Source: Candidatus Pacearchaeota archaeon
GTDB taxonomy: Archaea > Nanobdellota > Nanobdellia > Pacearchaeales > GW2011-AR1
DNA: 64,000 nucleotides
Direction: 5' to 3'
NCBI GenBank assembly: GCA_016188825.1
Contig: JACPHA010000005.1
Coordinates: 45 to 64,044, forward strand
The notes under the pieces were generated by a model. That model was not told the origin of the DNA, made no database searches, and saw only the letters and a list, made by a program, of their open reading frames with translations. The translations under genes were made by a program, and so were the position numbers. Of the stretch, positions 21,919-58,622 are shown piece after piece. Positions within the stretch are counted from its first letter, which is position 1; every line of letters begins with the position of its first letter.

Positions 21919-21919
21919 A

Positions 21920-29047: not shown

Positions 29048-29983
29048 ATGGACAATAAAAAGAGTGTCTACGGAAAGATTTTGTTTTTGATTTTGATATT
29101 TGCTATTGTTTTTGCCCTTTCTTCGTCTGAATTTTTTAATTGGCCTCTTTCTTTATATAATCTTATCACTGGACGAGCAACAACTAGCACAACAAGTTTG
29201 AATATTAGCGTTACAAATACAGCACCGATAATAACCTTTGTCAGCGCGATTGCTGCGACAGATCCGACCGAAAGCAGCACAGTTAATATCAGAGTTAATT
29301 TTACAGCAAATGATGCCAATGGAGGAAGCGATCTGGATAGGTTTGGTGGGCAAGCAAGATTTCAGTTTACTGGACAGACAACAAGATCCAATTTATCATG
29401 CTCAAATGTAACAGGGGTTTTTAGCAGTAATAATATGAACTTCACTTGCACTGTTGGAATGTGGTATTTTGATGTGCCTGCCAGCTGGACTGCTAATATA
29501 ACTATAAATGATTCGGCAAATGCCAGAGGAGAGAATAGCACAACGACATTTACTTTCAATACATTAAATGCAATGGTTATGTCTCCTACGGCATTAACAT
29601 GGGCTTCTTTAAGTATAACTTCAACAAATGTAGGTTCTAATAATGATCCAATCACAATAAATAACACAGGCAATAAGAACGTGACCAATGTAACTGTTAC
29701 AGGAATTGATCTTCGTGGAGAATCAAATGGTGCATTTGCTATTTTTGCAAGAAATATTTCAGTAAATGCGGTTGATGTTTCGGATGGGTTCCTTATGTTA
29801 AATAATTCTGCTGTTCAAGTTGAAAACGCAACATTATTAAGAGGAAATAACTCATTAAATTATGGGAATGAAACTTCAGGACAGGAGCAGATTTACTTTT
29901 ACGTAGAGGCTCTTAATCCGGATTTAACATCGCAGGCATATTCAACATTGGCCGGAGGTGCATGGACTGTGACATCGCAATAA
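29048..29983 (+). CDS. Secreted Asn-rich protein, free-standing paralog of the upstream ectodomain (cassette 2, gene 2)
   Basis: 311 aa. Signal peptide ILFLILIFAIVFALSSS followed by EFFNW. 29417-29472 is identical (56/56 nt) to 27588-27643 of the upstream gene. No TM or HTH. Confidence 0.8.
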   Translation: MDNKKSVYGKILFLILIFAIVFALSSSEFFNWPLSLYNLITGRATTSTTSLNISVTNTAPIITFVSAIAATDPTESSTVNIRVNFTANDANGGSDLDRFGGQARFQFTGQTTRSNLSCSNVTGVFSSNNMNFTCTVGMWYFDVPASWTANITINDSANARGENSTTTFTFNTLNAMVMSPTALTWASLSITSTNVGSNNDPITINNTGNKNVTNVTVTGIDLRGESNGAFAIFARNISVNAVDVSDGFLMLNNSAVQVENATLLRGNNSLNYGNETSGQEQIYFYVEALNPDLTSQAYSTLAGGAWTVTSQ

Positions 29984-41800: not shown

Positions 41801-44800
41801 CATGGCACCATGTTGCTGGTGTTTTTATAAAAAACACTGCGAAAGAATTGTATGTTGATGGAAAATTTGTTGAAAGTCTTAATACTACTACAAATTTTTT
41901 TACTGTAAACAGGTTTGCTGTCGGAAGGAAAGCAGGCCCAGTCCCTTTGGAATTTTTTAACGGAACAATTGATGAAGTCGCAGTTTGGAATAGAGCATTG
42001 AGCGCAGACGAAATAGTTAATTTATACAGACTAAAAGCGGGGAAATATTATTGGAAGGTTAATGTTTCAGATGGTTTGCTTAGTAATGAATCAGAAACAA
42101 GGGAATTTATAGTTGAGTCGTTGGGCTTGACTATTAATTTTCCTGAGAATAAGACATATAGAATTGGTTTACCGTTAGTTTTTAATGTTACTTTAGATAA
42201 AGATGGAAGTGAAGTTCGGTATAGTTTAGATAACGGTGTCAACAATAAAACAATGTCTTCGACGGATAGTAGAACATACAATGCGACAAACAGTTCAATT
42301 GCGGATGGAACTTATACTTTTAGAGTTTATGCAAAAGATGCATATGGAAATATAAATGAAACAGAAAAAGTGACTTTTGTTTTTGAAAATACAGAAATTG
42401 ATTCTTGCAGAGATTTGGATTTGAATGATACAGTTTATTTATTAAAGAGTGATGTCAGCTCAAGCGGAAATTGTTTCGTTATTGAAGCAAGCAACATAAC
42501 GCTTGATGGACAAGGACGCAGGATTTCTGGCTCTGGAATAAGTTTCGGAATTTCTGCTTCAGATGGAAAAAGAGATATAACCATTAAAAATGTTAATATT
42601 ACTAATTTTGCTTATGGAATTCGTTTTTACCGAGCTTTTGGTGAAATTGGGAGCATAAACTCTTTAATTTTCAATAATTCAGTTTATAATAATCAGATAG
42701 GAATTGATATTGGCGACACCAACAATACAATTATTAAAGAGAACCTTTTTAGAAATAATACAAATGAGGGGGTTTCTCTGTTTTATAGCCATAATAACAC
42801 AATCCAAAAAAATATTATTGTCATGAACACAAATGGAGTCGTTTTTAGTTCTTCCTCGGGCAATGTTATTGAAGGAAACACATTAAGCAATAATTCTCAA
42901 TATGGAATTAATCTTCAGTCGTCTAGCTCAAATAATCAAATAATAAACAACACAGCAAATTCTAATGGACAACGCGGGATGTATATTTCATCAAGTTCAA
43001 ACAATTTATTTACAAATAATAATCTCAATTCTAATGGTTTTTTTGGCATAAGTCTTGACAGCGGGGCAAGCCACAATGTTTTTAGAGGAGGATTAGTTAA
43101 TGGCTCTCAAGGCGATGCAATAAGAATTACTACCTCTTCTACATTCAATAACACATTCAACAATATAACAATCACAAACACAGACACTGGAGATTATGAC
43201 ATTAACTTTGCAACCGCAAGCATTAATGAAACCTATCTAATAGACATGCCACATATAGGCAATTATTCATTTGCAGGAGCAGGCGGAATTGTTATTTTTA
43301 AGAACAGTCAATTTGGAGAAATAAGATTCCTTAAACCAATAAACGGAACTGGAAATAACTTAACAAATCATGTGAGAATAAGTGATAATTTGGCAGTTGT
43401 TGAAAGCGGAATTAATAAGGGATTGAATAAAACAGCGAATATAACACTTTATGGCATAGGAGAAAGAGGATTTATTGGTCCTTATATCTTAAGAGATGAA
43501 GCAATATGTCAGTCGAATGTATGTTATAATTTTACTGCTTTGAATGAAACAAATGTAATATTTAACGTCAGCTACTGGACTGAATATGAGATTGGATACA
43601 CAGATGATTTGGATTCTTGCAGAACATTAGGAGTTGCCAATACTTATTATAGAATTATTAATAACATAAGCACTCAAGGGACATGCTTCACAATCACTGC
43701 GGATAATATAACTCTAGACGGGCAGGGATTTAATGTTACTGGGAACAAAAGTGGAGATGGAGTTTCTGCAACCGGAAGAACAAATATAACAATAAAGAAC
43801 TTGAACATTGGTAATTTCAGCAGGGGAATTTTCTTTACTACAACAAGCAATTCTTTAATTTTCAATAACACTTTATTTAATAATACACAATACGGCATTA
43901 GATTGGTTTCAACTTCAAATAACAATAGATTAACTAACAACACCATAAGTTCAAATAGCTTAAATGGGATTAGAATAGAAGGCAGCCAGAGCAATACAAT
44001 TTATGGTGGAATAGCAACGGGCTCCGGAGAAAACTCAATTCATTTAACAGGAAATTCTGATAATAATACATTAAACAATATTCAAATTACGAATACAAAT
44101 TCAAGTTTTTATGACATTAATTTTGCCTCTGGAGCAGTAGATTTAATTTATTTAATAGATATGCCTTACATTGGAAACTATTCATTTAATTCGGTGGACT
44201 TTATAATTTTTAGAAACTCACAATTCGGAGAAATAAAATTTTTCCAGCCAATAACTGCCTCTGGAAATAATTTAACAAATGAAGTTAGGATTGGGAATAA
44301 TTCTGCTATAGTGGAGAGTGGGATTAATAATGGATTAAATAGAAGTGCGAATGTAACACTTTATGGCATAGGAGAAAGAGGACTTTTTGGACCACTTATT
44401 TTGAGAGATGATGTTAAATGTCCTTCTAATATTTGTTATAACTTTACTGCTTTGAATGAAACAAATGTAATATTCAACGTCAGCTACTGGACTAATTACA
44501 GCATCGGTATAAATACTGTTTTGAGTTCATGCGGAGCTTTAAATAATCCAAACAGATATCATAAAGTTATAAACAATATAAATGCAAGTGGAACCTGTTT
44601 CACAATAACAGCAGACAATATAACTCTAGACGGGCAGGGATTTAATGTAACTGGAAATACAACAGGAGATGGAGTTTCTGCAACCGGAAGAACAAATATA
44701 ACAGTTAAAAATATAAATATTGTTAATTTCACTTCTGGAATATACTTTAGCGGAACTAATTACTCATTTGTTTTGAATAATTCAATTAGGAATAACACAG

Positions 44801-47800
44801 ATTCTGGGATTTATTTCATTAGTTCAAATAATAATACTATAGAAGACAATTTAGGGAGCGGAAATGTGCCCCTGACTTTTTCTTCAGGCATATACTTAAC
44901 AACTTCAAATGGCAATAATATTCGGAATAATCGCTTTAATTTGAATAAGAATGGAATTACTCTTTCTTCCAATGCAAACAACAATCAAATAATAAACAAC
45001 ACAGCAAATAACAATTCTCAATATGGAATTTATCTTCAGTCTAGCTCCAGCAACAACATAATAAACAACTTAGCAAATAACAATTCTCAATATGGAATTT
45101 ATCTTCAGTCTAGCTCCAATAATCAAATAATAAACAACACAGCAAATTCTAATTCTATTAATGGACTGCTTATGTTATTAAGTTCAAACAACAATCAAAT
45201 AATAAACAACACAGCAAATTCTAATTCTATTAATGGACTGCTTATTTCCTCAAGTTCAAACAATTTATTTACAAATAATAATCTCAATTCTAATGGTTTT
45301 TTTGGCATAAGTCTTGACAGCGGGGCAAGCCACAATGTTTTTAGAGGAGGATTAGTTAATGGCTCTCAAGGCGATGCAATAAGCACTAGAGATTATGACA
45401 TTAATTTTGCAATCGCAAGCATCAATGAAACCTATCTAATTGACATGCCACATATAGGCAATTACTCATTCGCTGGAGCTGGAGGAACTGTAATATTTAG
45501 AAACTCACAATTTGGAGAAATAAGATTCTTACAAACAATAAATGGAACAGGAAATAATTTAACAAGAGATGTTAGAATATTGAATAATAGTGCGGTTGTA
45601 AGAAGTGATTTGAACATTGGATTGAACAAATCAGCTAACATAACTCTTTATGGAATAGGGAACAGAGGATTTATTGGGCCATATATTTTGAGAGATAGTG
45701 CTATTTGCCCTTCTAATATTTGTTATAATTTTACATTATTGACAGCAGATATTGTAATATTTAATGTAACCTCATGGACTAAATACGAGATAGGTTTTGA
45801 AGCAAATTTGGACTCTTGCGATACATTGGGAGTTGCCAATACTTATTATAGAATTATTAACAACATAAGCACTCAAGGGACATGCTTTACAATTACAGCA
45901 GATAATATAACTCTTGACGGGCAAGGAAATATTATTAATAGTACTGGAACAGGCGACGGTGTTAATTCTGTTAGTACATCTAATATAACAGTAAAGAATA
46001 TTAATATAAATAATTTCAGCAGAGGAATATTTTTTGATAGAGTTAATAATTCTAATGTTTTATATAGTAATATTACAAACAACACTCAAAATGGTTTTGA
46101 GTTATCAAATGGCTATGGCAATACAATCCAAAATAATAGTTTTGACAATAATTTTCAATCTGGAATATACTTACAGTCTGGCTCAAGAAATAATAATTTA
46201 ATAAAGAACGTAGGCACAAGAAATAACCATGGAATACGCTTGTTTGGAAGCTCAAACAATAATCTCACAGAAAACAGGGTAATAGCTAATAGTATAGGGT
46301 TGCTTATTTTTTCTGATTCTGACAACAATAGATTGTCAAGTAACATAGCTAATGATAATGGTGATGGAATAAGAATAGATTTAAATTCTGATAATAACCA
46401 ATTATTGAACAATACAGCAAACAACAATAGTTTAGGAATTAATGTTCGTTCTAATTCAAATAATAATTCAGTTGAAAATGGCTCTCTGAATATGAATAAT
46501 AATACTCTCCTTATAAATGCTGTCACCGACCTTCTAGTAAGAGGAGGCACAATTAATGGCTCAAGACAAGATGCAATTACTATTAAGGGCTTAGGCACCA
46601 GAAATATTACATTAGATAATATCAAAATCACGAATACAAATTTAAGCAAATATGATTTATTTTTTGAAAGTGCCGGAATCAATGAAACCTACTTAATAGA
46701 CATGCCGCACATTGGAAATTATTCATTTGCAGGAGCAGGCGGAACAGTAATAGTAAAGAACTCACAATTTGGAGAAATAAGATTCTTACAATCAGTAAAT
46801 GGAACAGGAAATAATTTAACAAGAGATGTTAGAATATTAAATAACTCTGCTACTGTTAGGTCTGATTTAAATAGCGGTTTGAATAAATCTGCGAATATAA
46901 CTTTGTATGGTATTGGAGAAAGAGGATTTGTAAATCCTACATTATTTAGAGACGGCATTAAATGCCCGGCAGGGATTTGTTATAACTTTACATCATTAAC
47001 GGCTGAAAATGTTAGTTTAAACGTTACTTATTGGACTAATTATAGTATTGGAGACGAGCCCTGCGTTCCTCCTGCGAATGAAAACTGGAATATTACAGCA
47101 AATATAACTTGTGAGAATAAAGTTATTAGAGTTGCGAGGGATAAGAATGTTAATGTAAACAACGGTGGAAGTTTATCTTTAGTTAATTCTAGTTTGTTAA
47201 TGAACCTTACAGTAAACGGGGGAGGGAATATAACTGTTTTTATCGGAGGAAAAATGAACATAACCAAAGGAAGCAATATTACAACAGGGCAAACAGATAA
47301 GTCATTTGAGTTTAATTTTAAGGTCGGAAATGGAATAGATCTTAATGCTGGTTTCTATATGAGTGATAGTTTCTTGAGCGAGGTCGGACTTAATATGCAG
47401 GGATTGGAAATATACGTTCCTGTTAATTTAACAAATAACACATTTGATGTTAGAAGTATTGTTTTGGGAGGTATTTTAACAGACGGTTCTATTATAGAAA
47501 ATAACACAATTGTAAGTTCTAGGACATCTATCAGTATCGGGAGATCAAGGAACACAAAGATATTAGGTAATAAATTTAACTCGCAAAGAAGTTGTATTGG
47601 AGTGAGTATTGGTTCTGATTTCTTAATTATGAGAGAAAATAATTTTATTTGTTTGGATGGAGATGCCATGCCAGTAGCAAGTCCCGGGATGATTATAGAA
47701 AGAAATATATTTAGTAATGTTGTTGGCGGTGCTTTTCATTTAGCTGATGTTGCTCCAAGCGCAAACATCACAGATAATGTTATTCTTAACGCCAATACAC

Positions 47801-49245
47801 ATATTTCTACACAAGCCAATTTTAATGGTAATAATAATATTGTTTTCTTGAATTTGACCGGGCTTAATAAATCCAGAATAATTACTGATCCGAGCTCCAG
47901 CGGGAGTTTTAAAGTTAAATGGTATTTGACAATTAATGTTACAGATTCTGTAAGCAATGGAGAAGTAAGCGGGGCAGACGTTAGAGTTTATAATAACTCT
48001 GGAGGTTTAGTTGCTAATGGTTTAACAGGAGCAAATGGTTTAACAACAAGATTCAATGTCACAGAATTCAGTAGAAACGGGACTGCTTTTATGTATGAAA
48101 CAAATTTGACAATTAATGTTTCTGCTGTTGGCTTTAATAATTTTACAGGAGAGCTTAATTTAACTAATAATACAGTTTATGATGTGAAATTAATTAAAAA
48201 TAGGGCTCCGACAGAACCAACACCAGAGATAAATTCAACAGACGGAAGCAACAGGACAAAACAAGATTTACATTGTTTTGATACAATAACTGATTTGGAT
48301 AAAGATAGATTAAATGTTACAGTTAAATGGTATAAGAATTCAGTTCAGTTTTTGGTTGTTGATTATAATAATAGCTTTGTTAATGGGAGTTTCTTTGATG
48401 CTGTGCTTGGACATGGAAACACAACAAAGGGAGAAAATTGGAGTTGTGCGATTAGATTATTTGATGGACAAGCGTATACAAACTTTGTAAATAGTTCGCA
48501 ATTGAAGATATTAAATACACCGCCGGTTGTTACACTTGATAGTCCTTCTAATGATTTTACAACAACAGATAGAACGCCGATGTTTAACTGGACAGCAAGC
48601 GATGATGATAATGATGTTTTGACGTTTGAATTGAATTTGAGCTGTTATTCTGGATGTTCAGTTGACAACAGGTATAACGGAACAATAACTGCTATAAGCC
48701 ATACTTTTCCGGGAGACTTGAAATATTTGTCTGATAAGGGTTTCTATTATAATTGGAGTGTTAGAGCTAATGATACTGAATCCTTGAGTGCGTGGACTTT
48801 AGAAAGAGTGATAAAAATTAATTCTTTTGTAGCTATAACATTAATCAGAGATTTAGTTGAATTTGGACCGATTGATTTTAAAGCATGGAACGATACAAGC
48901 GATGATTCGCCATTGCCTTTCTTGTTGGAAAACATCGGAAATGTTTTTGTTAATATAACCGGCGGGGCGACTAGTTTGTGGCAGACAATTGCAAATCCAA
49001 GCCAGTATTATCAGTTTAAGATTGATAATAATACACTTGCAAATAAGTCATTTAATTGGTTTTCTTCGAGGACGACATATACAAATATGCCGAGCAATGC
49101 AACTCCAATTTTTGCAATTGCAGAATTGAATTATACAGATGCGACAAATACAGCAGAAATCGATATTAATATTACAGTTCCGCCAAATGAGGGTTCCGGA
49201 GTAAGAAGCTCGACGATAACTTTCACGGCAGAGCTGGGAGAATAA
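35857..49245 (+). CDS. Giant (4,462 aa) N-terminally anchored surface protein with repeated right-handed beta-helix (PbH1/NosD-like) modules and a LamG-like domain
   Basis: Uninterrupted 13.4 kb ORF. The only in-frame start after the upstream TAA (35839-35841) is TTG 35857. In order: basic N-terminus; TM FFSYVFLALILLGGIIFIFL; Pro/Glu-rich spacer; a domain shared with the two HTH proteins (FEIIVITKAEHLD...); a Cys-rich domain; six modules containing ADNITLDGQGFNITGN and 22-residue N-rich repeats; a Laminin_G_3-like block; Ig-like domains. There is no C-terminal TM. Confidence 0.9.
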   Translation: MSYTLAHKKYTYKNGKRYGPYLYENKRVGNKVFTRYLGPAKEGKNYKINFRFFSYVFLALILLGGIIFIFLNVGEIFNLLLSPFVGEKPFLSIEDINYQRGEIIKGELKLNVKAGELIPSDSKLIINFGDIEKEFVLTELIDKETLDGDFYIEGNNLDGFGNGFGIVGEKEVFPEIEFELMILEAEKNVSEEIPAGGGVGEGEENETIEEKLMNETPKEPVEEQPQVPSGEIPSGEQPPEVPAEETPSGEVVEQPPIEAPPEEQPQKEIIEQPIEGEQPSESQPTESQPSEETSTEPSLSPEENIISGIVTKGNDFVYELSEGKTAKIIEGSIKINDTQLADSNLILRIEDNKVIISTEYSIKEKGFGEEFLGDERVEFLSIDLDELGFVVENDSVLKAKLVYEEQTLAEAEEEIIIEEKIEKNITVPIENQTITNITILENITIENVTQLTAVLGQSVKWVKYVDASDSGNISIELPKSAEKIDVKKVKKEKKGDKEEETEEEEKIEGVIEENITEEKIEGVENQTAEEVINKSFSEEVIEKEEGNVSEEEVALSPPEAGFSDFIEEELEDRKEITVEVSPAEIGKVVIEVIYETPAPYAVEEDTTRGKKVKIIGPKDVHYENVLAFTNLSENLGIINPSSIKIYWVENNSYIYPENVSDTNSNGIYDYVSWTILRLSNQTFEIIVITKAEHLDENRTVISDIYDSMKELDGIWSEEIPDKHYVRVKFEIPLDNKRDITIYPRAASGNPKIEIYEINGTEKIAEFSSLVDNEYNKVYLTSLQNSQDTFDLLVLGGSVEFEHIIDPSASPGNGIDLRPQACGLQKRQPSQNLFENDCNNENYPYLSNATYPSNCGITGDRLSCDDGIVHGSLTDQRDEFAGVNITSFNQTITDCINIEQVFLCYEFWQQQGERAHTCTVGVDANGDASWSDTSITCSVSEPGVTCTDVTASEPWECSNFFGPSGTRALARAQAKRGQGASGNNTWYFDVLFFNVTYSNNTDLTSCRDLNEAGETYKVINNINALGTCFKINADNITLDGQGFNITGNRIGDGVNFTGRLNITIKNLNIYNFSRGIYFDKTNDSFILDNAIRNNSNEGIRLFLLSFNNVIKNNIVSGNQQDGIIIISASKNNTIENNTVNNNNHGIRLSSASGNQLINNRVKSHSSNGIYVLSSNGNTLINNTIELSNFNELSVEASSDNLINGGIINNSNSGQNALFISGSSSRNNTFNNITITNTDTRDYDINFATAGINETYLIDMPHIGNYSFAGAGGIVIFRNSQFGEIRFLQTINGTGTNLTRDVRIRNNSAVVESGINKGLNKSANLTLYGIGNRGFSIPTILRDSSICPSNICYNFTALNATNVIFNVTYWTNYSIGGEIGFEANLDSCDTLGVANTYYRIINNISTQGTCFTITADNITLDGQGFNITGNRIGDGVNVTGRLNITIKNLNIYNFSRGIYFDKTNDSLVFNNTANNNSGFFGYGIHLLFSNNNTIENNTLKSNAIGISVNSFSTNNALVRNILVSNNLLGLGKGISIGGSSGKNIIEENIANLNIEGISISTAGNQLINNTMNSNSVIGIGLTSASNNIISGGIINNSGGNSIRLSQVSTRNNTFNNVTIINTNKSFYDIFVTAGINETYLIDMPHIGNYSFTGAGGIVIFKNSQFGEIRFLQPINGTGTNLTRDVRIFNNSVVVRSDLNIGLNKSANITLYGIGNRGFTKPLLIRDNASCGNICYNFTDLNATNVIFNVTYWTNYSIGGEITSSTPPYVILKKPDNNSLFGLGVFNIILNATVFDINNDAIDVFIYGVNSTDTTNFYNYLLHKQLNVSNGSTITYNFTALPVDKNSAGLRVLYHFDNLSQYQESEAKSYDFSGNNNNGTWFNGPVYNTSREGSKFGYAAQLDGIDDFIERSSALGITNYPFTFSAWVRKNNDSGTKGTIISFGESLSSNIYYGLRINESGQAEIYAAGSGPEGKIGGSADLRGAWHHVAGVFIKNTAKELYVDGKFVESLNTTTNFFTVNRFAVGRKAGPVPLEFFNGTIDEVAVWNRALSADEIVNLYRLKAGKYYWKVNVSDGLLSNESETREFIVESLGLTINFPENKTYRIGLPLVFNVTLDKDGSEVRYSLDNGVNNKTMSSTDSRTYNATNSSIADGTYTFRVYAKDAYGNINETEKVTFVFENTEIDSCRDLDLNDTVYLLKSDVSSSGNCFVIEASNITLDGQGRRISGSGISFGISASDGKRDITIKNVNITNFAYGIRFYRAFGEIGSINSLIFNNSVYNNQIGIDIGDTNNTIIKENLFRNNTNEGVSLFYSHNNTIQKNIIVMNTNGVVFSSSSGNVIEGNTLSNNSQYGINLQSSSSNNQIINNTANSNGQRGMYISSSSNNLFTNNNLNSNGFFGISLDSGASHNVFRGGLVNGSQGDAIRITTSSTFNNTFNNITITNTDTGDYDINFATASINETYLIDMPHIGNYSFAGAGGIVIFKNSQFGEIRFLKPINGTGNNLTNHVRISDNLAVVESGINKGLNKTANITLYGIGERGFIGPYILRDEAICQSNVCYNFTALNETNVIFNVSYWTEYEIGYTDDLDSCRTLGVANTYYRIINNISTQGTCFTITADNITLDGQGFNVTGNKSGDGVSATGRTNITIKNLNIGNFSRGIFFTTTSNSLIFNNTLFNNTQYGIRLVSTSNNNRLTNNTISSNSLNGIRIEGSQSNTIYGGIATGSGENSIHLTGNSDNNTLNNIQITNTNSSFYDINFASGAVDLIYLIDMPYIGNYSFNSVDFIIFRNSQFGEIKFFQPITASGNNLTNEVRIGNNSAIVESGINNGLNRSANVTLYGIGERGLFGPLILRDDVKCPSNICYNFTALNETNVIFNVSYWTNYSIGINTVLSSCGALNNPNRYHKVINNINASGTCFTITADNITLDGQGFNVTGNTTGDGVSATGRTNITVKNINIVNFTSGIYFSGTNYSFVLNNSIRNNTDSGIYFISSNNNTIEDNLGSGNVPLTFSSGIYLTTSNGNNIRNNRFNLNKNGITLSSNANNNQIINNTANNNSQYGIYLQSSSSNNIINNLANNNSQYGIYLQSSSNNQIINNTANSNSINGLLMLLSSNNNQIINNTANSNSINGLLISSSSNNLFTNNNLNSNGFFGISLDSGASHNVFRGGLVNGSQGDAISTRDYDINFAIASINETYLIDMPHIGNYSFAGAGGTVIFRNSQFGEIRFLQTINGTGNNLTRDVRILNNSAVVRSDLNIGLNKSANITLYGIGNRGFIGPYILRDSAICPSNICYNFTLLTADIVIFNVTSWTKYEIGFEANLDSCDTLGVANTYYRIINNISTQGTCFTITADNITLDGQGNIINSTGTGDGVNSVSTSNITVKNININNFSRGIFFDRVNNSNVLYSNITNNTQNGFELSNGYGNTIQNNSFDNNFQSGIYLQSGSRNNNLIKNVGTRNNHGIRLFGSSNNNLTENRVIANSIGLLIFSDSDNNRLSSNIANDNGDGIRIDLNSDNNQLLNNTANNNSLGINVRSNSNNNSVENGSLNMNNNTLLINAVTDLLVRGGTINGSRQDAITIKGLGTRNITLDNIKITNTNLSKYDLFFESAGINETYLIDMPHIGNYSFAGAGGTVIVKNSQFGEIRFLQSVNGTGNNLTRDVRILNNSATVRSDLNSGLNKSANITLYGIGERGFVNPTLFRDGIKCPAGICYNFTSLTAENVSLNVTYWTNYSIGDEPCVPPANENWNITANITCENKVIRVARDKNVNVNNGGSLSLVNSSLLMNLTVNGGGNITVFIGGKMNITKGSNITTGQTDKSFEFNFKVGNGIDLNAGFYMSDSFLSEVGLNMQGLEIYVPVNLTNNTFDVRSIVLGGILTDGSIIENNTIVSSRTSISIGRSRNTKILGNKFNSQRSCIGVSIGSDFLIMRENNFICLDGDAMPVASPGMIIERNIFSNVVGGAFHLADVAPSANITDNVILNANTHISTQANFNGNNNIVFLNLTGLNKSRIITDPSSSGSFKVKWYLTINVTDSVSNGEVSGADVRVYNNSGGLVANGLTGANGLTTRFNVTEFSRNGTAFMYETNLTINVSAVGFNNFTGELNLTNNTVYDVKLIKNRAPTEPTPEINSTDGSNRTKQDLHCFDTITDLDKDRLNVTVKWYKNSVQFLVVDYNNSFVNGSFFDAVLGHGNTTKGENWSCAIRLFDGQAYTNFVNSSQLKILNTPPVVTLDSPSNDFTTTDRTPMFNWTASDDDNDVLTFELNLSCYSGCSVDNRYNGTITAISHTFPGDLKYLSDKGFYYNWSVRANDTESLSAWTLERVIKINSFVAITLIRDLVEFGPIDFKAWNDTSDDSPLPFLLENIGNVFVNITGGATSLWQTIANPSQYYQFKIDNNTLANKSFNWFSSRTTYTNMPSNATPIFAIAELNYTDATNTAEIDINITVPPNEGSGVRSSTITFTAELGE
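36505..36770 (+). repeat. Pro/Glu/Gln-rich low-complexity spacer in the giant protein
   Basis: EEQPQVPSGEIPSGEQPPEVPAEETPSGEVVEQPPIEAPPEEQPQKEIIEQPIEGEQPSESQPTESQPSEETSTEPS. Confidence 0.85.
41396..42035 (+). other. LamG / concanavalin-A-like lectin domain in the giant protein
   Basis: LRVLYHFDN...DFSGNNNNG...LDGIDDFIE...FTFSAWVR...WHHVAGVF...LYVDG...FNGTIDEVAVWNRALSADEI is the typical Laminin_G_3 motif order. Confidence 0.7.
44980..45257 (+). repeat. Four near-identical 66-72 bp tandem units (22-24 aa beta-helix coils)
   Basis: Units at ~44980-45050, 45051-45116, 45117-45185 and 45186-45257, encoding NNQIINNTANNNSQYGIYLQSSS / NNIINNLANNNSQYGIYLQSSS / NNQIINNTANSNSINGLLMLLSS / NNNQIINNTANSNSINGLLISSSS. 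Confidence 0.9.
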
Positions 49246-49989: not shown

Positions 49990-49992
49990 TTT

Positions 49993-50252: not shown

Positions 50253-50759
50253 ATGATAAATAAAAAATATTTAGTTTTCGGAATTGACTTGATTTTGGTA
50301 GTTGGAAGCTTTTTGGTTATTTGGAGTGTTTATAATTATTCACAGCCGGTTTTGCTTTCTCCTCCTGATGAACTTGTTACCACAGAAAATGCGGTCCTGT
50401 TTGAGTTTGACAAGGCAGGAGTTATTTTAATAGACGATAATGTTGATTTTACTTCTCCTCAAGAGATTTATGCAGAGAATAATTTGGTGGTAAATCTGAA
50501 ACCTGGAGTTTATTATTGGAAGGTTAAGGGTGCTGTCGAAAGTGAAATAAGGCAGTTTACCATAAAATCAGCAGTGGAGCTGAAATTGAAAAGAACAGAG
50601 ACAGGAGATGGCTACAGGGTTGTTAACGCAGGCAATACAAGATTGAATGTTGATGTTTATGAGAAAGGAGAATATGTGGATAGCGTTGTTTTGAAAATTG
50701 ACGAGGAAAAAGAAGTTTCAGGAACTACTTTTATAGGAGAGGAGGAAGAAAATGGATAA
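50253..50759 (+). CDS. N-terminally anchored small surface protein
   Basis: 168 aa. TM LVFGIDLILVVGSFLVIWSV is followed by a beta-rich domain. 8 nt overlap with the next gene. Confidence 0.6.
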   Translation: MINKKYLVFGIDLILVVGSFLVIWSVYNYSQPVLLSPPDELVTTENAVLFEFDKAGVILIDDNVDFTSPQEIYAENNLVVNLKPGVYYWKVKGAVESEIRQFTIKSAVELKLKRTETGDGYRVVNAGNTRLNVDVYEKGEYVDSVVLKIDEEKEVSGTTFIGEEEENG

Positions 50760-51951
50760 AAAATTATTTTTGATAGTTTTATTTGTAGGAATAGTTTTGT
50801 TAAATATCAGCAATACAATGGCTTTGGGAATAGCACCGGGCAGAAGCACATTTGATTATTCTCCAGGCGAACAGAAAAAAGTTGATTTTACAATTGTTAA
50901 TACTGACAAGAGAGATTTAAGTTTGGTTATTTTTACGCAGGGGGAGTTTAATAATTCAATTGCATTGTCTGAAGTTTTTGTTAAGATGAGCGCAAATGAG
51001 GAAAGCAAAACTCTGAGCTATACTTTTACAATGCCTTCGGTTTTATCACCCGGATTGCACAAGGGAGAGATTGTTGTTTTGCAGCTGCCTGAAAAGAGCG
51101 GGAGCAGTGAAACATTTGTTGGAGCAACAGTGGGGGTTATAACACAGCTTTATGTTTATGTTCCTTATCCTGGGAAATATGCAGAATCAGAGTTGGATGT
51201 TATTGGCCCTGAAAATGACGGCAAGATAACTTTTGTCATGCCTGTTACCAGCAGGGGAGAATTGGATATTGCGAGAGTCAGAGGGACAATTGATATTTAT
51301 AGCGTTTTGAATGAGAAAGTTGCGACTTTGACGACGAATGAGATTCCTTTGGCCAGCAAGCAAAGAGCAGAAATAGCGGCTGTTTGGGAACCGAAAGTTG
51401 CGCCCGGGCCGTATAGAGCAGTTGCAACAGTTTTGTATGACGAGCAAACATTGACAGTTGAAAAGAAATTTAATGTTGGCAAGAAAAGTTTAGTTGTAGA
51501 GGGAATTGAAGTAAATGATTTTTCTCTTGGCGAGATAGCCAAGTTTGAAGTTCTCATAAAAAATGAGTGGAGTGATGAGATTCAGGGAGCATACTCGGAA
51601 ATAATTGTTTATAATCAAGAAGGAAAAGTAATGGCTACTTTCAAATCGCCGACATATGATATCCCGCCGTTGGAAAAAAGCTTGATGGTTTCGTTCTGGG
51701 ATACAGAAGGAGTGAGGAAAGGAACTTATGAATCATCGCTATTTTTGAAATATGGCGACAGCGCAGACAGAAAAGATTTGAAATTTGAGATTGCAGATAA
51801 ATCAATTAAGATAATTGGAGCAGGATATGTAATAGAAGAAATAGCACGAGGCGATAACACAGTTAAAATTTTGATTGGCGTTATAGTGTTTTTAATTTTA
51901 ATTAACTTGAGCTGGTTTATTTTCTTGAGGAAGAAATTTGTGAAGAAGTGA
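50752..51951 (+). CDS. Surface protein, beta-sandwich repeats with C-terminal TM anchor
   Basis: 399 aa. Signal peptide, GIAPGRSTFDYSPGEQKKVDFTIVN, a PYPGKYAE motif, and C-terminal TM ILIGVIVFLILINLSWFIFL followed by RKKFVKK. Paralog of 53863..55041. Confidence 0.75.
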   Translation: MDKKLFLIVLFVGIVLLNISNTMALGIAPGRSTFDYSPGEQKKVDFTIVNTDKRDLSLVIFTQGEFNNSIALSEVFVKMSANEESKTLSYTFTMPSVLSPGLHKGEIVVLQLPEKSGSSETFVGATVGVITQLYVYVPYPGKYAESELDVIGPENDGKITFVMPVTSRGELDIARVRGTIDIYSVLNEKVATLTTNEIPLASKQRAEIAAVWEPKVAPGPYRAVATVLYDEQTLTVEKKFNVGKKSLVVEGIEVNDFSLGEIAKFEVLIKNEWSDEIQGAYSEIIVYNQEGKVMATFKSPTYDIPPLEKSLMVSFWDTEGVRKGTYESSLFLKYGDSADRKDLKFEIADKSIKIIGAGYVIEEIARGDNTVKILIGVIVFLILINLSWFIFLRKKFVKK

Positions 51952-52167: not shown

Positions 52168-52437
52168 CATAGTTGATATAAGAAGAGAGTTAATTATTAA
52201 TAAATAAATAGATAGCGAGATTATTGTATCTGACGATTGAGTGAATCATAATTTATCATTAAGATTTTTTCGATTTAATTTAAGATTATCTGACAATAAA
52301 TTTAGAGAGTGATTATTTTTCTGTTCAATTATTTTCTTATAAAAAGTAGTAAAGAAAACATTGCGAGCGAAGACAGAAAGATTTATAAAGAAAACAATTT
52401 TTGTATTAGATAATTATTTAATGAGGTAAAAAAGAGG

Positions 52438-52647
52438 ATGAATACGCAACAAGTGATTATCGTGTTGTTGGTTATTGCGATTATTTTTTCTGTAGTTTCG
52501 ATTGTTTTGAATTTGTGGATGAATAGCAGCTTTATTCCTTTGGAAGTTGGTGTTAGGAGAGAAGTAAGAAATATAAATACAATAGTTGATAACGCAGGAC
52601 CGAGTGAAGGAAATGTTGGAGTAACTATAGTGGGGGGTGGAGCATGA
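52438..52647 (+). CDS. Small membrane protein
   Basis: 69 aa with N-terminal TM VIIVLLVIAIIFSVVSIVLNLW. ATGA overlap with the next gene. Confidence 0.45.
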   Translation: MNTQQVIIVLLVIAIIFSVVSIVLNLWMNSSFIPLEVGVRREVRNINTIVDNAGPSEGNVGVTIVGGGA

Positions 52648-53363
52648 GTTCCGACAATGTTTTATTGACACTTGCATTTTTGGCAGTTGCAGTTTCTGTA
52701 GTTGGTGCAGGCTATTCTTTGTGGACAGTTGCTAATTTTAATGATTGGCTGGTTGGATTGTCTCCGGGCGCTACGACGAATCAAACCATAGCAACAGTTA
52801 ATATTACAATTGTGCAGAACCTTGCTATTGAATTTACAAGAGATGTTATTAATTGGGGAAATGGAAGCGTGGCTTCTGCGCAGACAAACGCAAATTTAAC
52901 ATCCGAGGGGCAATTTGACAGGTGGGCTAATCTGACACCCGCAAATGTTACTAGTGGTTTTGTGCTGGAAAACGTGGGAAATATTAATGGTAGCTTATAT
53001 GTGCGCACAGAAAAAAACGCAACTAACTTTTTCTTTGGCCCTAGCGGACCAATAGGTTTAGGCGAAGTGGCATATCAATACAAAGTTAGAAGTTGCAATA
53101 CACTAAGCGGAGTAATAAACTGTACTGTGACTGGACGAGTGGATGACACAGCCGACTCCTGTGGCTTTAAAAACATTACTTTCGGAGTTTATGGAGATGT
53201 TAATGCTGCGACAACTGCTTTAGGCGATTTGGTGTGCACAAACTTTGGTTTTGGTCCAGAAACAGCAGATGCATTGAGAATAGATGTTTTGATAACTGTT
53301 CCATTTAGCGCGGCGGGTACAAAAGGAGATAGAATGATAGCTACAGCCGAGAGGCAGCCATAA
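52644..53363 (+). CDS. Secreted protein with TasA/SipW-type-like N-terminus
   Basis: 239 aa. LLTLAFLAVAVSVVGAGYSLWTVANFNDW resembles the SipW-cognate signal region of TasA (..GGGTWAAFND). GFVLENVGNINGSL and INWGNGSV patterns are shared with the C-terminal domains of the 311/312 aa proteins. Its G+C is noticeably higher than its neighbours. Confidence 0.6.
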   Translation: MSSDNVLLTLAFLAVAVSVVGAGYSLWTVANFNDWLVGLSPGATTNQTIATVNITIVQNLAIEFTRDVINWGNGSVASAQTNANLTSEGQFDRWANLTPANVTSGFVLENVGNINGSLYVRTEKNATNFFFGPSGPIGLGEVAYQYKVRSCNTLSGVINCTVTGRVDDTADSCGFKNITFGVYGDVNAATTALGDLVCTNFGFGPETADALRIDVLITVPFSAAGTKGDRMIATAERQP

Positions 53364-53370
53364 CTGTTTA

Positions 53371-53419
53371 TTTTCAAATTGGGTTTAATAGCCAGCAGCT
53401 TGCTGCTCCAATTTGGAAA
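53371..53419 (+). terminator. Long hairpin immediately after the 52644..53363 stop
   Basis: TTTTCAAATTGG (53371-53382) pairs with CCAATTTGGAAA (53408-53419), 12 bp with one G-U. An inner AGCAG/CTGCT stem is present. Confidence 0.35.
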
Positions 53420-53421
53420 TT

Positions 53422-53545: not shown

Positions 53546-53663
53546 AAGCTTCACTGAATATATTTAATAGGTAATTGGTGCTAAAACGCTCCAATCAAAA
53601 CCATTAAAAAAATAATACATTAATACGTTTTAAAAAGCCAGTTTAGACTACATTTAATTGTCA

Positions 53664-53862: not shown

Positions 53863-55041
53863 ATGAAATTAAAAAGAGGCAACCTATATTTTTTTTTATT
53901 TTCAATTATATTTATTTTAGAATATGTTGAGGCTGCGCCCATAGGAGTTACTCCGGCAGGGTATGACGTTAATTTTGAGCCGGGTTTAAGTCAAGTTTTT
54001 AGCTTTTATTTTGGAATAGATGATACTTCTGCTAAATATGAAGTATATGTGCTGGGAGATTTGTCAGATTATGTGAAGATAAGCAGAGATGAGCTGAATG
54101 GCCCCGGAAATGTCAATGTTCTTTTACAACTTCCAGACAAAATTGAAAAGCCGGGAGTTCATAGAATAAGAGTTGGAATAAATAAAATTGGCGGAGGACA
54201 ACAGGGAGCAATCAGCGTTGTTGCAAGCGTAGTCGGAGTGATAGATGTAAGAGTTCCATATCCTGGTAAATATGCAGAGATTCAATTTAGTGCAACAAAT
54301 GCAAATGTCGGAGAGCCTGTTGAATTTAAATTAACAATAAGTAGTCTAGGACACGAAACAATTTTAGCTGATTCAAGAGTTGAACTTTATGATTCAAGGG
54401 GAAAGAAAGTAGACACAATTGATATGGGAACCAATGAAATTTCTTCTACTGAAACAAGAGAGATTGTTAAGAATGTTGATACGAAAAATTATGCTGCCGG
54501 AAGCTATAAAGCAGTCGCAGTAGTTGATTATGGCGGCGAGAAACCGGCAAGCGCAGAAGCGGATTTTAGGCTTGGCGAGCTTTTTGTTGATATTGTGAAC
54601 CACACAAAAGAATTTGAAAGGGGAAAGATAAATAAGATGGACATTCAGATTGAGAGCCATTGGAATGACCCGATAGAAAATGTTTACGGAGAAGTTTTTA
54701 TTTTGGGTTATAATATTCCTTCATTTTTGACTCCTTCTGTAAATTTGGATAAATTCGGCAAGGCGATTTTAACGGGTTATTTTGATACAACAACTATTGA
54801 TAAAAACAAATTTCAAGCCAAGGTTGTTTTGCGTTACAAAGGCAAAACAACAGAAAAAACAGTAGACTTGAGATTCAAAAGAGAAGTTAATAAATTAGCT
54901 GTTGGAATAATGATTGTAAGTTTGCTGATTGTGATAGTTTTGATATTGTTAATAATTATAAATAGAAGAAGGAGAAAAGAAGCAAGAGAAGATGTTATTA
55001 AAAGAATAATTGGAAAAAATGAAAAAAAGAAGAAAAAATAA
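53863..55041 (+). CDS. Surface protein, beta-sandwich repeats with C-terminal TM anchor
   Basis: 392 aa. Signal peptide, GVTPAGYDVNFEPGLSQVFSFYF, a PYPGKYAE motif, and TM LAVGIMIVSLLIVIVLILLIII followed by NRRRRK. Confidence 0.75.
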   Translation: MKLKRGNLYFFLFSIIFILEYVEAAPIGVTPAGYDVNFEPGLSQVFSFYFGIDDTSAKYEVYVLGDLSDYVKISRDELNGPGNVNVLLQLPDKIEKPGVHRIRVGINKIGGGQQGAISVVASVVGVIDVRVPYPGKYAEIQFSATNANVGEPVEFKLTISSLGHETILADSRVELYDSRGKKVDTIDMGTNEISSTETREIVKNVDTKNYAAGSYKAVAVVDYGGEKPASAEADFRLGELFVDIVNHTKEFERGKINKMDIQIESHWNDPIENVYGEVFILGYNIPSFLTPSVNLDKFGKAILTGYFDTTTIDKNKFQAKVVLRYKGKTTEKTVDLRFKREVNKLAVGIMIVSLLIVIVLILLIIINRRRRKEAREDVIKRIIGKNEKKKKK

Positions 55042-55474
55042 ATTTGAAAAAAAATTTAGAGGAATATATTTTTATATTTTGTTTTTAATTGCTGTTATTA
55101 TAGTATTTTTTTCTGTTTTGCTCTGGGTTTCAGGACCAATTGAAACAAAAGAATTTGATGTTAGGTTTAGTGTTAAGAATGAAGTGGGGGGATTTGATTT
55201 GAACGGCACAGCTTTAACTTATGGCATAATTCCTTTGGGGGGAGCAGGCGTTAGAACAGTTATAATTGGGAATTATCATGAATTTCCTGTTGAAGTTAAG
55301 ATTTTAGCAAACAGAGAAATTTTTGATTTCATTGACGCCCCAGAGAAAATTTTTCTTGGTGCTGGAGAAGAAAAGAATGTAACTATAAGAATAGAGATTC
55401 CAGAAGATGCAGAAGAGAAAGAATATAACGGGAAAATTAGGTTTGATACTTATTCTTTAAAGAATATTAAATGA
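55019..55474 (+). CDS. N-terminally anchored small surface protein
   Basis: The ORF track starts at TTG 55010; ATG 55019 is more plausible. Basic N-terminus, TM IYFYILFLIAVIIVFFSVLLWV, and a beta-rich domain ending IPEDAEEKEYNGKIRF. Confidence 0.6.
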   Translation: MKKRRKNKFEKKFRGIYFYILFLIAVIIVFFSVLLWVSGPIETKEFDVRFSVKNEVGGFDLNGTALTYGIIPLGGAGVRTVIIGNYHEFPVEVKILANREIFDFIDAPEKIFLGAGEEKNVTIRIEIPEDAEEKEYNGKIRFDTYSLKNIK

Positions 55475-55708: not shown

Positions 55709-57754
55709 ATGAAAAAGAGGAAGAATTTAATTAATTTTTTAGTTATTTTATTTGCAATTTTATTAATTTCATTTAATGCTATTTTTATTGGAAATAAACT
55801 TTTTTTTAGTAAGATTGTTCCTAGTTTAGAAATTGCTACTTTTAGTCCAGAAGGGATTGGAATAATAGGCTTGCTTATAATAAGCCAGAATTTAGAAATT
55901 TTTATTCATAGTCCACAGAACATTACATATTTTTTTACAATCAGCGATTGGCTTGATAGTAATTTAACGCTAGATTTGAATGTATCTTCAAATACTGAAA
56001 GCATGGACAAATGGTGGTACACATTAGAAGACGTTAGACATGGAGTTATAGTTAATAATTCTGTTTATTTTACACCGAACACAACAATCAATGCAGTAAG
56101 ATGGAATAATAAACTGACAGTTTATGCTAATGATACTTTTGGTCGATTTGCAAACACAAGCGTTGAATTTTTTATTTCAGTGCCAAATACTGCTCCGATA
56201 CTTGAACCAATTCCAGATGAAATGCTTGCTTGTGAAGGACAGCAATTTTCGCAACAAGTAAATGCGACAGATATTGATGAAGATGATTTGGATTTTGGTA
56301 TTGTTCCAAGCGGGCCATTTTTTATTGAGTTTGAGCCATTTGGAAGAAGATACAATTTAACCGTTGTTTACAACAACATATTCTCTGGATTTTTACAGAA
56401 AAACCATGCCGGGACACACCAGGAAACGGTTTCAGTTATCGATAATAATGGGGGCTCAGATTCAAAGCAGACAAATATTACAGTTATCGAAATTAATAAT
56501 AATCCTGCAATGGAGAATTTGACTATTTTTACAGTTTGGACGCAGGGAGATAACAGCACTTTTTATAAGGAAGTTCAGATAAATGATATTGAAAGTGGTT
56601 TACAGAGTTCTGGTAATTTTAATTTTAATTTAACTTTCCTTAATGGAGTGAAATTCTTTGATATCAATAAAAGCAGTGTTATGAACTTTACAGGAAACAC
56701 GAGCTTGATTGGAGTTTATAATATAAGTTTGTGCGTGACTGATCAGGCATTGGCAAATATTCATCCCAATATTAGTTTGTGTAATAACGATGGTTTGAAT
56801 AATACTGTTTGTGATACTTTTCAGGTTGTTGTTACGAATCAAAATAGGCAGCCGAGAATTTTGAGTTATTATCCTGCTAATTTGACTTTTAATGTCCAGG
56901 GAACAGACGGCCTGTACTTTAATATTTCAAAGCACGATCCAGACGGAGGAATACCGCCAGGGTATTGGTATGTTAACGGTGTTTTAAGAGAGTTAGATGA
57001 ATTTTCTAATTCAGATAATTTTACATTTAGTTTCGGCTGTGGTGTTTCTGGATTGCACTTTGTTAAGGCAGAGATAACAGACGGAGAATTAAATGATTCT
57101 GTGCAGTGGAATATTACAGTTAATGAGGTTGAATGTCCTTTGCCTTCTGCAGGCGGCGGAGGCGGAGGAGGTGGTGGAGGAGGGTGTAGCGAGAAGTGGG
57201 GTTGCTATGACTGGCAAATTTGTAAAAATGCTGTTTTTGGGCTTAGTCAAGGAGAATTGACGGGAGAAGATTACAGAAAGGTTAAGGAAAAATGCGCGGA
57301 GAAAAATTGGAATGATGAAATTTGCGGTTTTCAAATGAGAGAATGTGTTGATGTTAATTCTTGCGACAGAATACTTAACAGACCCATAATATTTCAGGAA
57401 TGCTTCTATACGGAAAATCCGACTTGCGATGATGGCATAAAAAATTGTCACACTAATGGCTGTGAATTGTTAGTTGATTGCGGAGGACCATGCGGGGCGT
57501 GTCCAACTTGCTCTGATGGAACACAAAATCAGGGAGAAGAAGAAATTGATTGCGGCGGACCATGTCCAAGACAATGTCCTGCTGAAAGCCCGTTAAGAAA
57601 AAATTGGTGGTGGTTGCTGATACTTTTAATATTATTGGTAACATTAATTATAACTATACGTAGATATTATATGCTAAGAAAAGAAGAGAGAGAAAGGGAA
57701 GAAAAGGAAAAAACATTAAAGAGAAGCAGTATTATGCCTGGTGTTGGAAAGTAA
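55709..57754 (+). CDS. Surface protein: Ig/cadherin-like repeats + poly-Gly hinge + Cys-rich module + TM anchor
   Basis: 681 aa paralog of 34326..35753. LACEGQQFSQQVNATDIDEDDLDFGIVP, a hinge of 11 Gly (~57150-57185), CSEKWGCYDWQIC...CSDGTQNQGEEEIDCGGPCPRQC, and TM WWWLLILLILLVTLIITI. Confidence 0.75.
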   Translation: MKKRKNLINFLVILFAILLISFNAIFIGNKLFFSKIVPSLEIATFSPEGIGIIGLLIISQNLEIFIHSPQNITYFFTISDWLDSNLTLDLNVSSNTESMDKWWYTLEDVRHGVIVNNSVYFTPNTTINAVRWNNKLTVYANDTFGRFANTSVEFFISVPNTAPILEPIPDEMLACEGQQFSQQVNATDIDEDDLDFGIVPSGPFFIEFEPFGRRYNLTVVYNNIFSGFLQKNHAGTHQETVSVIDNNGGSDSKQTNITVIEINNNPAMENLTIFTVWTQGDNSTFYKEVQINDIESGLQSSGNFNFNLTFLNGVKFFDINKSSVMNFTGNTSLIGVYNISLCVTDQALANIHPNISLCNNDGLNNTVCDTFQVVVTNQNRQPRILSYYPANLTFNVQGTDGLYFNISKHDPDGGIPPGYWYVNGVLRELDEFSNSDNFTFSFGCGVSGLHFVKAEITDGELNDSVQWNITVNEVECPLPSAGGGGGGGGGGGCSEKWGCYDWQICKNAVFGLSQGELTGEDYRKVKEKCAEKNWNDEICGFQMRECVDVNSCDRILNRPIIFQECFYTENPTCDDGIKNCHTNGCELLVDCGGPCGACPTCSDGTQNQGEEEIDCGGPCPRQCPAESPLRKNWWWLLILLILLVTLIITIRRYYMLRKEEREREEKEKTLKRSSIMPGVGK

Positions 57755-58088: not shown

Positions 58089-58622
58089 ATGGTCTATTTT
58101 TTATTATTTAATATGAAAAACGGAAAGTTAAATTTTATTAGGATTTTATTTTTAGTTTTTGTTTTTTTAGCAGGATTTATTTTGGGACAAATTTTTAATT
58201 TTAGTTTTGACAGTGAGAGAATTACGGGTTTTGATATTTTTTCTAATAAGATAACAGGTTATGCGATTGAGCCACCTTCGGATTTAATTGATGATAAGAA
58301 CATAATTATTTACCCGGACAAAGTTGTTATTCTGGTAGGGGGAGCAAGGCTAAACAATTACGAGGGAAGCGGCAGCATGTCCCCCTTGTTTGGAAAAAAT
58401 TCAAACGGAATAACGATTAAACCCAATAGCGAAGACGAAATAGCGGTTGGAGATATTGTAAGTTTTAGAAAAAATGATGAATTAATTGTTCATAGAGTTG
58501 TTGAGAAAGGTTTTGACAGAGAGGGAGTTTATTTTATTACTAAAGGAGATAATTCACAAGTTGTTGACGGAAAAATAAGGTTTTCAGAAATTGAGCATGT
58601 TTTAATTGGGGTTGTTTATTAG
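58089..58622 (+). CDS. Signal peptidase I, archaeal/ER (Sec11/SipW) type
   Basis: N-terminal TM, then GSGSMSPLF (Ser nucleophile box), GDIVSF, IVHRV (His in place of the bacterial Lys) and TKGDNS. An alternative start ATG is at 58113. Confidence 0.85.
   Translation: MVYFLLFNMKNGKLNFIRILFLVFVFLAGFILGQIFNFSFDSERITGFDIFSNKITGYAIEPPSDLIDDKNIIIYPDKVVILVGGARLNNYEGSGSMSPLFGKNSNGITIKPNSEDEIAVGDIVSFRKNDELIVHRVVEKGFDREGVYFITKGDNSQVVDGKIRFSEIEHVLIGVVY

Follow-up and report, generated by a model that had tools for sequence, protein, structure and literature searches.

Three secreted proteins, designated A, B and C, are encoded in the 64 kb stretch of Candidatus Pacearchaeota archaeon DNA analyzed here (contig JACPHA010000005.1; hereafter the window) and carry the motif [AS]xFx[DN]W near their N termini. 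An earlier note on this DNA had likened the motif to the SipW-cognate signal of Bacillus TasA. We find that the alignments place the motif as a local variant within a longer N-terminal module common to the three proteins and that membership of A, B and C in the TasA/SipW family is not supported by profile searches. Protein A belongs to a large family, as yet unnamed, of small surface proteins found in tiny DPANN archaea; it is encoded in a conserved operon, and its predicted fold is suggestive of filament subunits that donate a strand. Our best joint explanation, which we hold tentatively, is that the three motifs are part of a lineage-specific DPANN N-terminal module for export and assembly and that A may be a strand-donating subunit of a fiber or a docking complex, the assembly step of which we infer.

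The motif lies in the translated open reading frames (ORFs) of A (VVGAGYSLWTVANFNDW; nucleotides 52731-52748), B (NFVSASFGDW; 21055-21072) and C (ALSSSEFFNW; 29126-29143), in each case directly after the N-terminal hydrophobic stretch; the coordinates given in the earlier note were those of the ORF starts. A six-frame scan of the window returned four matches, three of which are those in A, B and C, and the fourth falls in a frame interrupted by a stop codon. BLAST found no similarity between A and either B or C. Alignment of the A-family profile with the B/C-family profile was confined to the N terminus (hhalign probability, 87%; E = 4e-6), and the likeness of the motifs therefore exceeds chance. 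The claim that three secreted proteins share this motif, all in real ORFs, was thus borne out.

The full module is longer than the motif and comprises a hydrophobic leader, an F..W spacer, a small-residue site and a strand of the form VN(I/L)T(V/I), which doubles as an N-glycosylation sequon. The small-residue site reads (I/L)TG(F/Y)A in most members of the A family and KITGxAT in most members of the B family, with VSA as an alternative in the B family and SPGA in A itself. Among 152 A-family representatives, the TGxA site was present in 98, the VNxT strand in 120 and the strict motif in a single one; about 4 of 15 B-family members carry the strict motif. The motif-bearing stretch, residues 23 to 38, is the least conserved part of A. 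Conservation of the A-family leader amounts to 2.42 bits per column versus 2.17 for the beta domain and equals that of the most conserved strand, a level that is unusual among generic signal peptides. The possibility that the module is a relic of an immunoglobulin (Ig) F-G hairpin was dropped, as module hidden Markov models (HMMs) matched only the orthologous junctions in the giant proteins G1 and G2 and one weak internal site in protein N (independent E value, 0.32).

The C-terminal domains had also been said to share a TasA-style strand pattern, xLxNxGN. This pattern is literal in A, in B and at the C terminus of the giant protein G3, and C has I in place of L. Comparison of the beta domain of A with domain 2 of B/C gave an hhalign probability of 8.5%, at which homology is not detectable, and a common C-terminal domain of A and B/C is therefore unproven.

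Protein A consists of a leader (residues 1-22), a spacer with ANFNDW at residues 30-35, the SPGA site, a TVNITIV strand (51-57) and a beta-sandwich (62-237) that holds two invariant cysteines. A word-indexed search with A returned 5 relatives, and a profile search of 1.84 billion representatives extended the family to at least 1,525 representative clusters (E <= 1e-3); with few exceptions these are 190 to 240 residues long with full-length matches, and they are annotated at the source as hypothetical. No Pfam or NCBIfam model matched the family when A and 54 members were scanned, and sequence and profile searches of the PDB with A, B, the A family and the H/I family found nothing relevant. An AlphaFold model of the A monomer, built from a 54-sequence alignment (predicted local distance difference test [pLDDT] score, 83.6; predicted template modeling score, 0.70), shows a helix at residues 3-38, an unpaired segment at 39-61 that includes the conserved strand, and then the beta-sandwich with one short helix. 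When this model was compared with the PDB by Foldseek, the top matches were the fibril proteins TLP-1b and TLP-1a (probability, 0.97 and 0.92), followed by birnavirus VP2 jelly-rolls at low probability and then by the Saci_0406 thread, CsuE, CS20, the Hyper2 tube (probability, 0.84), Csu, CanA and type-1 pilins. The matches to donor-strand subunits are weak (E, 5e-3 to 0.1; TM-score, 0.2 to 0.5). The predicted fold class is thus suggestive of strand-donating filament subunits and is no proof of strand donation.

TLP-1a and TLP-1b form fibrils recovered from pond water by CryoSeek (9IKJ, 9IKK) that assemble by donor-strand exchange, and their donor strand is left disordered by AlphaFold (PMC11494351). 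They resemble A in length (approximately 237 residues), in an N-terminal strand that AlphaFold does not place and in a C-terminal Ig-like head with one short helix, but they differ in sequence (12% identity; TM-score, 0.30 to 0.34), in having bacterial proteins as their closest predicted relatives and in having an ordinary 22-residue signal peptide. Archaeal filaments are also represented among the best 30 PDB matches to A, namely, the Saci_0406 thread (7PNB) and structures from the CanA/CanX/Hyper2 cannulae (9BAB, 9HDI), a group considered here together with AbpA/AbpX; however, the probabilities range from 0.21 to 0.84, TM-scores do not exceed 0.51 and there is no sequence link. Saci_0406, Hyper2 and CanA have been placed in a "TasA superfamily" by HHpred, and filaments of this superfamily are secreted via Sec and signal peptidase I and assemble without a chaperone or ATPase (2024 preprint); the A operon likewise encodes no ATPase. 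Remote homology of AbpA and CanX to TasA was detectable by profile-profile comparison. Reports of such archaeal filaments come mainly from Thermoproteota, and our literature searches found no paper that ties TasA or donor-strand filaments to DPANN archaea. The remaining matches are to chaperone-usher pili (Csu, CS20, type 1), whose Ig-like subunits donate an N-terminal strand. Tip adhesins such as FimH and CsuE combine an adhesin with a C-terminal pilin-like domain, and G3, a huge adhesin with a C-terminal A-like domain, recalls this architecture. These archaea, however, lack an outer membrane; neither an usher nor a PapD chaperone was identified, and the operon protein J has only weak PapD-like matches.

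The window has a G+C content of approximately 33%, and its proteins have relatives in metagenome-assembled genomes (MAGs) of Woesearchaeota, Pacearchaeota and "Nanoarchaeota", which places its source among the DPANN archaea. Loci related to that of A, gathered with a 6-sequence A alignment, showed that nine loci, drawn from MAGs of Woesearchaeota, Pacearchaeota and Nanoarchaeota that represent at least six different DPANN genomes, keep the gene order around A: a G3-like giant, K, H, a mini-ORF of approximately 70 residues, A, I, J, in L008 a second A, and O (coordinates are given in Table 1). No ATPase, platform or prepilin peptidase genes (PilB/PilC/type IV pilus) were found in the nine loci. 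The mini-ORF of the window, u69, has a stop codon that overlaps the start of A (ATGA) and is made up of a leader helix like that of A, a spacer and, at the C terminus, the strand GNVGVTIV, which resembles TVNITIV of A. A comparable ORF of approximately 70 to 105 residues lies upstream of A in six loci (L001, L005, L006/L007, L009 and L010), and the terminal strands of mini-ORFs elsewhere (GSIGITIL, GQIGLDLI, SDVGLQVL, GKIVVTIE and GNVVISIG), like that of u69, alternate hydrophobic residues and lack the sequon. In the Pacearchaeota locus L008, two A paralogs are present, before I (2363-2953) and after J (4703-5296), and no mini-ORF was detected upstream of the first. J follows I in eight of the nine loci, and no J homolog was detected in the ninth, L011.

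The earlier note had stated that the anchored giants end in the same domain as the soluble proteins. For G3 this holds at the extreme C terminus, where an A-like domain stands, and the same domain also ends the giants of L006 and L007 and the protein P0052. A is the small, stand-alone form of the beta-sandwich domain that ends the giant adhesin. Pairing of A with its cognate giant was looked for, and A and the G3 end are only approximately 24% identical, with a similar result in L006, unlike B and C, for which such pairing is described below.

Table 1. Positions of the proteins and domains discussed, in window coordinates
Feature	Position	Strand	Description
B-like two-domain module of G1	19549..20346	+	G1 residues 974-1239, just before second transmembrane segment; 57% identical to B
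B	20980..21918	+	312 residues; signal peptide ending VSA/SFGDW, unplaced FNLTVTV strand, two Ig-like domains
E	21905..22585	+	226 residues; signal peptide, one Ig-like domain, C-terminal transmembrane segment; after B
C-like two-domain module of G2	27300..28148	+	G2 residues 833-1115, just before second transmembrane segment; 61-64% identical to C
C	29048..29983	+	311 residues; B paralog; motif SEFFNW, then ITGRAT and LNISV
F	29985-30608		Paralog of E; follows C
G3	35857..49245	+	4462-residue giant; N-terminal transmembrane segment, 11 beta-helix/NosD stretches, Laminin_G_3, A-like terminal domain
A-like domain of G3	48916..49233	+	Extreme G3 C terminus, residues 4354-4459 of 4462; A-family (A2) HMM E 8e-11
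K	50253..50759	+	168 residues; N-terminal transmembrane segment and beta domain; conserved operon member
H	50752..51951	+	399 residues; signal peptide, Ig-like domains, VPYPGKYAE motif, C-terminal transmembrane segment; paralog of I
u69	52438..52647	+	69 residues; ORF; A-family HMM matches residues 1-50
A	52644..53363	+	239 residues; ORF, family alignments, AlphaFold, Foldseek
I	53863..55041	+	392 residues; paralog of H; after A in 9/9 A-family loci
J	55010..55474	+	154 residues; N-terminal transmembrane segment and single beta-sandwich; weak Pfam matches Cep192_D3, WxLIP_PGBD, FixG_C
O	55709..57754	+	681 residues; cadherin-like repeats, Cys-rich module, C-terminal transmembrane segment; operon end in several loci
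Signal peptidase I	58089..58622	+	177 residues; probably Sec11/SipW type (S26B); TIGR02228 E 7e-12; boxes GSGSMSP, VHRV, GDN

In the explanation that we favor, A would be exported via Sec, and its leader would be removed by the general Sec11-type signal peptidase of the cell at or near the small-residue site. The freed N-terminal strand would then complete the beta-sandwich of a neighboring A-type domain by donor-strand complementation, and the outcome would be either a glycosylated surface fiber or A docked on the terminal domain of G3. The mini-protein u69, which has only the leader and a mimic of the strand, would contribute a strand, tethered to the membrane, as cap or anchor of the assembly, and H, I, J and K would be membrane-anchored Ig-like partners; the cleavage, the strand donation and these roles of u69, H, I, J and K are our inference. 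A more far-reaching reading, which we consider rather unlikely, is that the operon giant-K-H-u69-A-I-J-O encodes a previously unrecognized, ATPase-free donor-strand surface fiber widespread among DPANN archaea, with A as its major subunit, the beta-helix mega-adhesin joined through its C-terminal A-like domain much as tip adhesins are joined to chaperone-usher pili, the membrane-anchored, strand-only mini-protein as anchor or terminator and a dedicated, conserved class of leader for the export of all these proteins.

Several observations weigh against strand donation by A. The fold matches are weak, the best of them with an E value of 5.5e-3 and a TM-score of 0.34, and TasA and AbpA (8AUR, 5OF1 and 7UEG were checked) fall outside the top 50 fold matches. 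Residues 51-60 have a mean pLDDT of 84, and in the model the strand at 51-57 may already be packed on A's own domain. In the giants G3 and P0052, the domain and the VNITI-type strand before it lie on one chain, and this strand could be no more than the initial strand of the fold, left unpaired by AlphaFold. A lacks TGxA; it has VGLSPGA, 18 residues past the hydrophobic core, a long distance for cleavage by signal peptidase I, and the A family has no conserved AXA site after the core. The strong conservation of the leader is equally compatible with a retained membrane anchor.

The main rival is a static coat or adhesion complex, which we regard as possible but somewhat doubtful; in its favor are the strongly conserved leader, the absence of an AXA site close to the core in the A family and the occurrence of strand and domain on one chain in the giants. 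The leader of A would then be an uncleaved anchor, and A, u69, H, I, J, K and O would be tethered, glycosylated Ig-like proteins that accompany the giants, with no polymerization or strand exchange. A leader that is as conserved as the fold and is predicted as one long helix, residues 3-38, fits such a complex, as do the same helix in u69 and the transmembrane segment borne by every operon partner. However, the top fold matches of A are filament subunits and not anchored receptors, the TG/xA small-residue site stands directly before the strand in approximately two-thirds of the A family, and a mini-protein made up only of helix and strand is hard to account for by a static complex. The second A paralog in the L008 operon, a feature usual for pilin sets, likewise weighs against a static complex.

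B and C, which are approximately 41 to 44% identical to each other, differ from A in their relation to the giants. The ectodomains of G1 and G2 end in B/C-like modules, 55% identical between the two giants, and to this extent the earlier statement about the giants' ends stands; the proteins themselves do not end there, for a second transmembrane segment follows and then a cytoplasmic Sigma70_r4_2 helix-turn-helix tail that scores above the Pfam cut-off. The cassette of giant, B-like, E/F-like and L/M-like genes recurs in loci L012 and L014. In the four cassettes, the small B-family protein is nearest to its own neighboring giant, at identities of 75%, 55 to 59%, 57% and 61 to 64%, versus 39 to 51% for others, with L012 and L014 accounting for the first two. 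At the DNA level, B (21204-21455) and G1 (19662-19913) share a 252-nucleotide tract of 86.5% identity with a 50-nucleotide exact run, and C (29215-29967) and G2 (27386-28141) are 70% identical over 771 nucleotides with a 56-nucleotide exact run. Such mosaic identity points to gene conversion or to selection that keeps the pairs matched, and the alignments suggest recurrent conversion between giant and small gene. In our reading, B and C stay matched to the membrane-proximal module of the giant next to each of them, and they probably bind this module homotypically.

For B and C only, an alternative reading, which we think quite improbable, is that they serve as donor cassettes from which gene conversion diversifies the neighboring giant, or as secreted decoys, and not as assembly partners. 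The mosaic tracts and the pairing of each small protein with its own giant in four genomes would be expected under this reading. However, both genes look expressed, with intact signal peptides, full frames and a fixed downstream partner, E or F, and gene conversion is compatible with homotypic binding. The AlphaFold model of B (pLDDT, 79) has two Ig/fibronectin type III (FnIII)-like sandwiches and matches RbmA and antibody Fab chains best. RbmA of Vibrio cholerae, a tandem FnIII biofilm scaffold, is like B a secreted protein of two beta-sandwiches and is the best fold match (E = 3.4e-5; probability, 1.0), but TM-scores are 0.17 to 0.25 and Fab chains score equally, so that the resemblance is a generic tandem-Ig one.

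The giants of these cassettes (G1, 16630-20934; G2, 24804-28742; and, in their own loci, L012 4432-9966 and L014 6546-9953) have a cytoplasmic coiled N terminus, a transmembrane segment, an ectodomain of approximately 1,100 residues of Ig repeats, a second transmembrane segment and the helix-turn-helix tail. G1 and G2 look like membrane-tethered, transcription-factor-like mega-proteins. On the opposite strand between the two giant cassettes of the window (23474-24589) lies a gene whose secreted product contains an HEFGH motif and matches Peptidase_M64 (IgA-peptidase-like) just above the cut-off (E = 2.5e-6).

Membership in the TasA/SipW family was examined with HMMs and profile comparisons. 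A, B and C had no match to TIGR04088, the SipW-cognate signal model (threshold, 19 bits), at E <= 1, and the isolated N termini of A, B, C and the relative P0159 had none at E <= 10. As a positive control, a Bacillus subtilis TasA sequence scored 514 bits on the TasA equivalog model NF046066 and 38 bits on TIGR04088. A, B and C did not match PF12389 (Peptidase_M73) or NF046066, the 54 A-family members did not match PF12389 at E <= 0.1, and no TasA, M73 or TIGR04088 match emerged when A, B, C and seven neighbors were scanned against Pfam and NCBIfam. Against a TasA alignment of 38 sequences, the hhalign probability for A was 10.8%, with alignment confined to the leader region, and that for B/C was 0.8%; trimming of the leaders lowered these to 0.7% and 0.3%. 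Together with the gene neighborhood, these results leave TasA membership and a dedicated SipW unsupported, and the proposed likeness to SipW-cognate signals and to TasA itself, with profile comparison at no more than 11%, was not upheld. Of the suggested comparison of AlphaFold models, what emerged is that the best matches of A are subunits of donor-strand filaments, TasA and AbpA not among the top 50, and that B is a generic tandem Ig protein.

It is therefore very unlikely that A, B and C carry SipW-cognate signals cut by the peptidase encoded at 58089 and form TasA-family fibers on giant anchors. The features in common with the Bacillus system of TasA/CalY, SipW and TapA are secreted beta-rich proteins, F-x-D after a small-residue site and a Sec11-type peptidase nearby in this window. 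The B-family consensus VSA/GFxDW is like TWA/AFND of TasA in sequence and position, and the 10.8% alignment pairs TGFA..GTVNLTV of the A family with FAA..GTLDL of TasA. TapA nucleates TasA via strand complementation (PMC10151520), and the A operon holds a possible strand-donor partner that is comparable in this respect. Archaeal TasA/AbpX genes often adjoin signal peptidase I genes (2024 preprint). In contrast to the Bacillus system, HMM and profile similarity is lacking despite a working control, B has a tandem Ig fold and not the TasA jelly-roll, the strict motif is almost absent from the A family, and no TapA match was found for H, I, J or K. The idea of an anchor plus subunits remains as a hypothesis in modified form, in that the soluble proteins duplicate the terminal modules of the giants; assignment to the TasA/SipW family is not supported.

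The signal peptidase gene, which had been described as lying at the edge of the island, is present and probably encodes a Sec11-type enzyme, with Ser, His and Asp boxes visible and a score of 45.4 bits on the archaeal model TIGR02228, below the curated cut-off of 51.85; on the SipW model NF046067 its product scored 35.6 bits against a cut-off of 190. It lies 4.7 kb downstream of A, and elsewhere a homolog stands near the operon only in the close relative L004; phmmer detected none within 8 to 10 kb on either side in the A-family loci L006, L008, L010 and L011 or the B-family loci L012 and L014. The peptidase is thus not a conserved neighbor. No archaeal signal peptidase I is known outside the Sec11/SipW type.

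The least tenable alternative, that A is a type IV pilin-like subunit with its N-terminal helix as filament core, would suit the lollipop shape of the model (helix 3-38 and Ig-like head), the conserved hydrophobic N terminus and the acidic residue 4, but was rejected, as the A family has no class III signal peptide (the [KR][GA] prepilin site is absent and positions 2-3 vary), helix and head are separated by a low-confidence linker of 22 residues, no archaeal pilin or archaellin is among the top 50 fold matches and the nine loci contain none of the machinery genes.

A large part of archaeal diversity belongs to the DPANN archaea, and most of them are thought to live attached to other cells by structures that are almost unknown. 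An unannotated family of this size, with a conserved giant-adhesin operon and a suggestive fold class, is a concrete candidate for such an attachment structure. Donor-strand filaments have so far been found mainly in bacteria and Thermoproteota; if A does donate a strand, they would extend to DPANN archaea, and the fiber could be the organelle by which these ultra-small cells attach to hosts or surfaces. Both the matched pairs of giant and small protein and the conserved leader module can serve as markers in the annotation of DPANN surface proteomes. Should A prove to be only an anchored Ig-like protein, the correction that A, B and C are not TasA/SipW proteins stands.

Of 74 ORFs with such a hydrophobic segment in the window and loci L006 to L014, 19 have a TG-type site, (I/L/F)TG(F/Y/K/R)(A/V), a few residues downstream of the first segment, compared with approximately 7% expected from the background frequency of the motif. 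Examples in the window are the ORFs at 24804, 29048, 30878, 34326 and 58089, the last of which, the signal peptidase, itself holds two such sites. Judged from its distribution, the site may be a lineage-typical cleavage or sorting site.

Members of the H/I family resemble the DUF916/DUF3324 proteins (WxLIP_PGBD, WxLIP_HBD) of Firmicute WxL loci in having a signal peptide, Ig-like domains and a C-terminal transmembrane anchor; Pfam WxLIP_HBD was matched by 6 of 13 members (best E, 4e-6), most below the Pfam cut-off, and unlike those loci, this one has no WxL proteins. Between G3 and K, a PIN_2 gene (E = 6e-17) is encoded on the minus strand (49543-49989); a 338-residue plus-strand ORF that overlies it (49247-50263) has no family match and is probably spurious, and in L006 K directly follows the giant. 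A search for repeats around A found no flanks like those of mobile elements, and Rfam and tRNA scans of the window, including the long intergenic spacers around A, found nothing. The spacers that flank u69-A (51952-52437 and 53364-53862) are approximately 490 nucleotides each, versus 35 to 270 nucleotides in other loci, and within the second, nucleotides 53364-53620 match no Rfam family, are richer in G+C and fold better than shuffled sequence (z = -3.1). Proteins N (34326-35753) and O have in common a C-terminal Cys-rich module, CxDGxxNxxExxxDCGGPC, preceded by a polyglycine linker and followed by a transmembrane anchor, and interdomain runs of 7 to 11 glycines occur in L, M and O.

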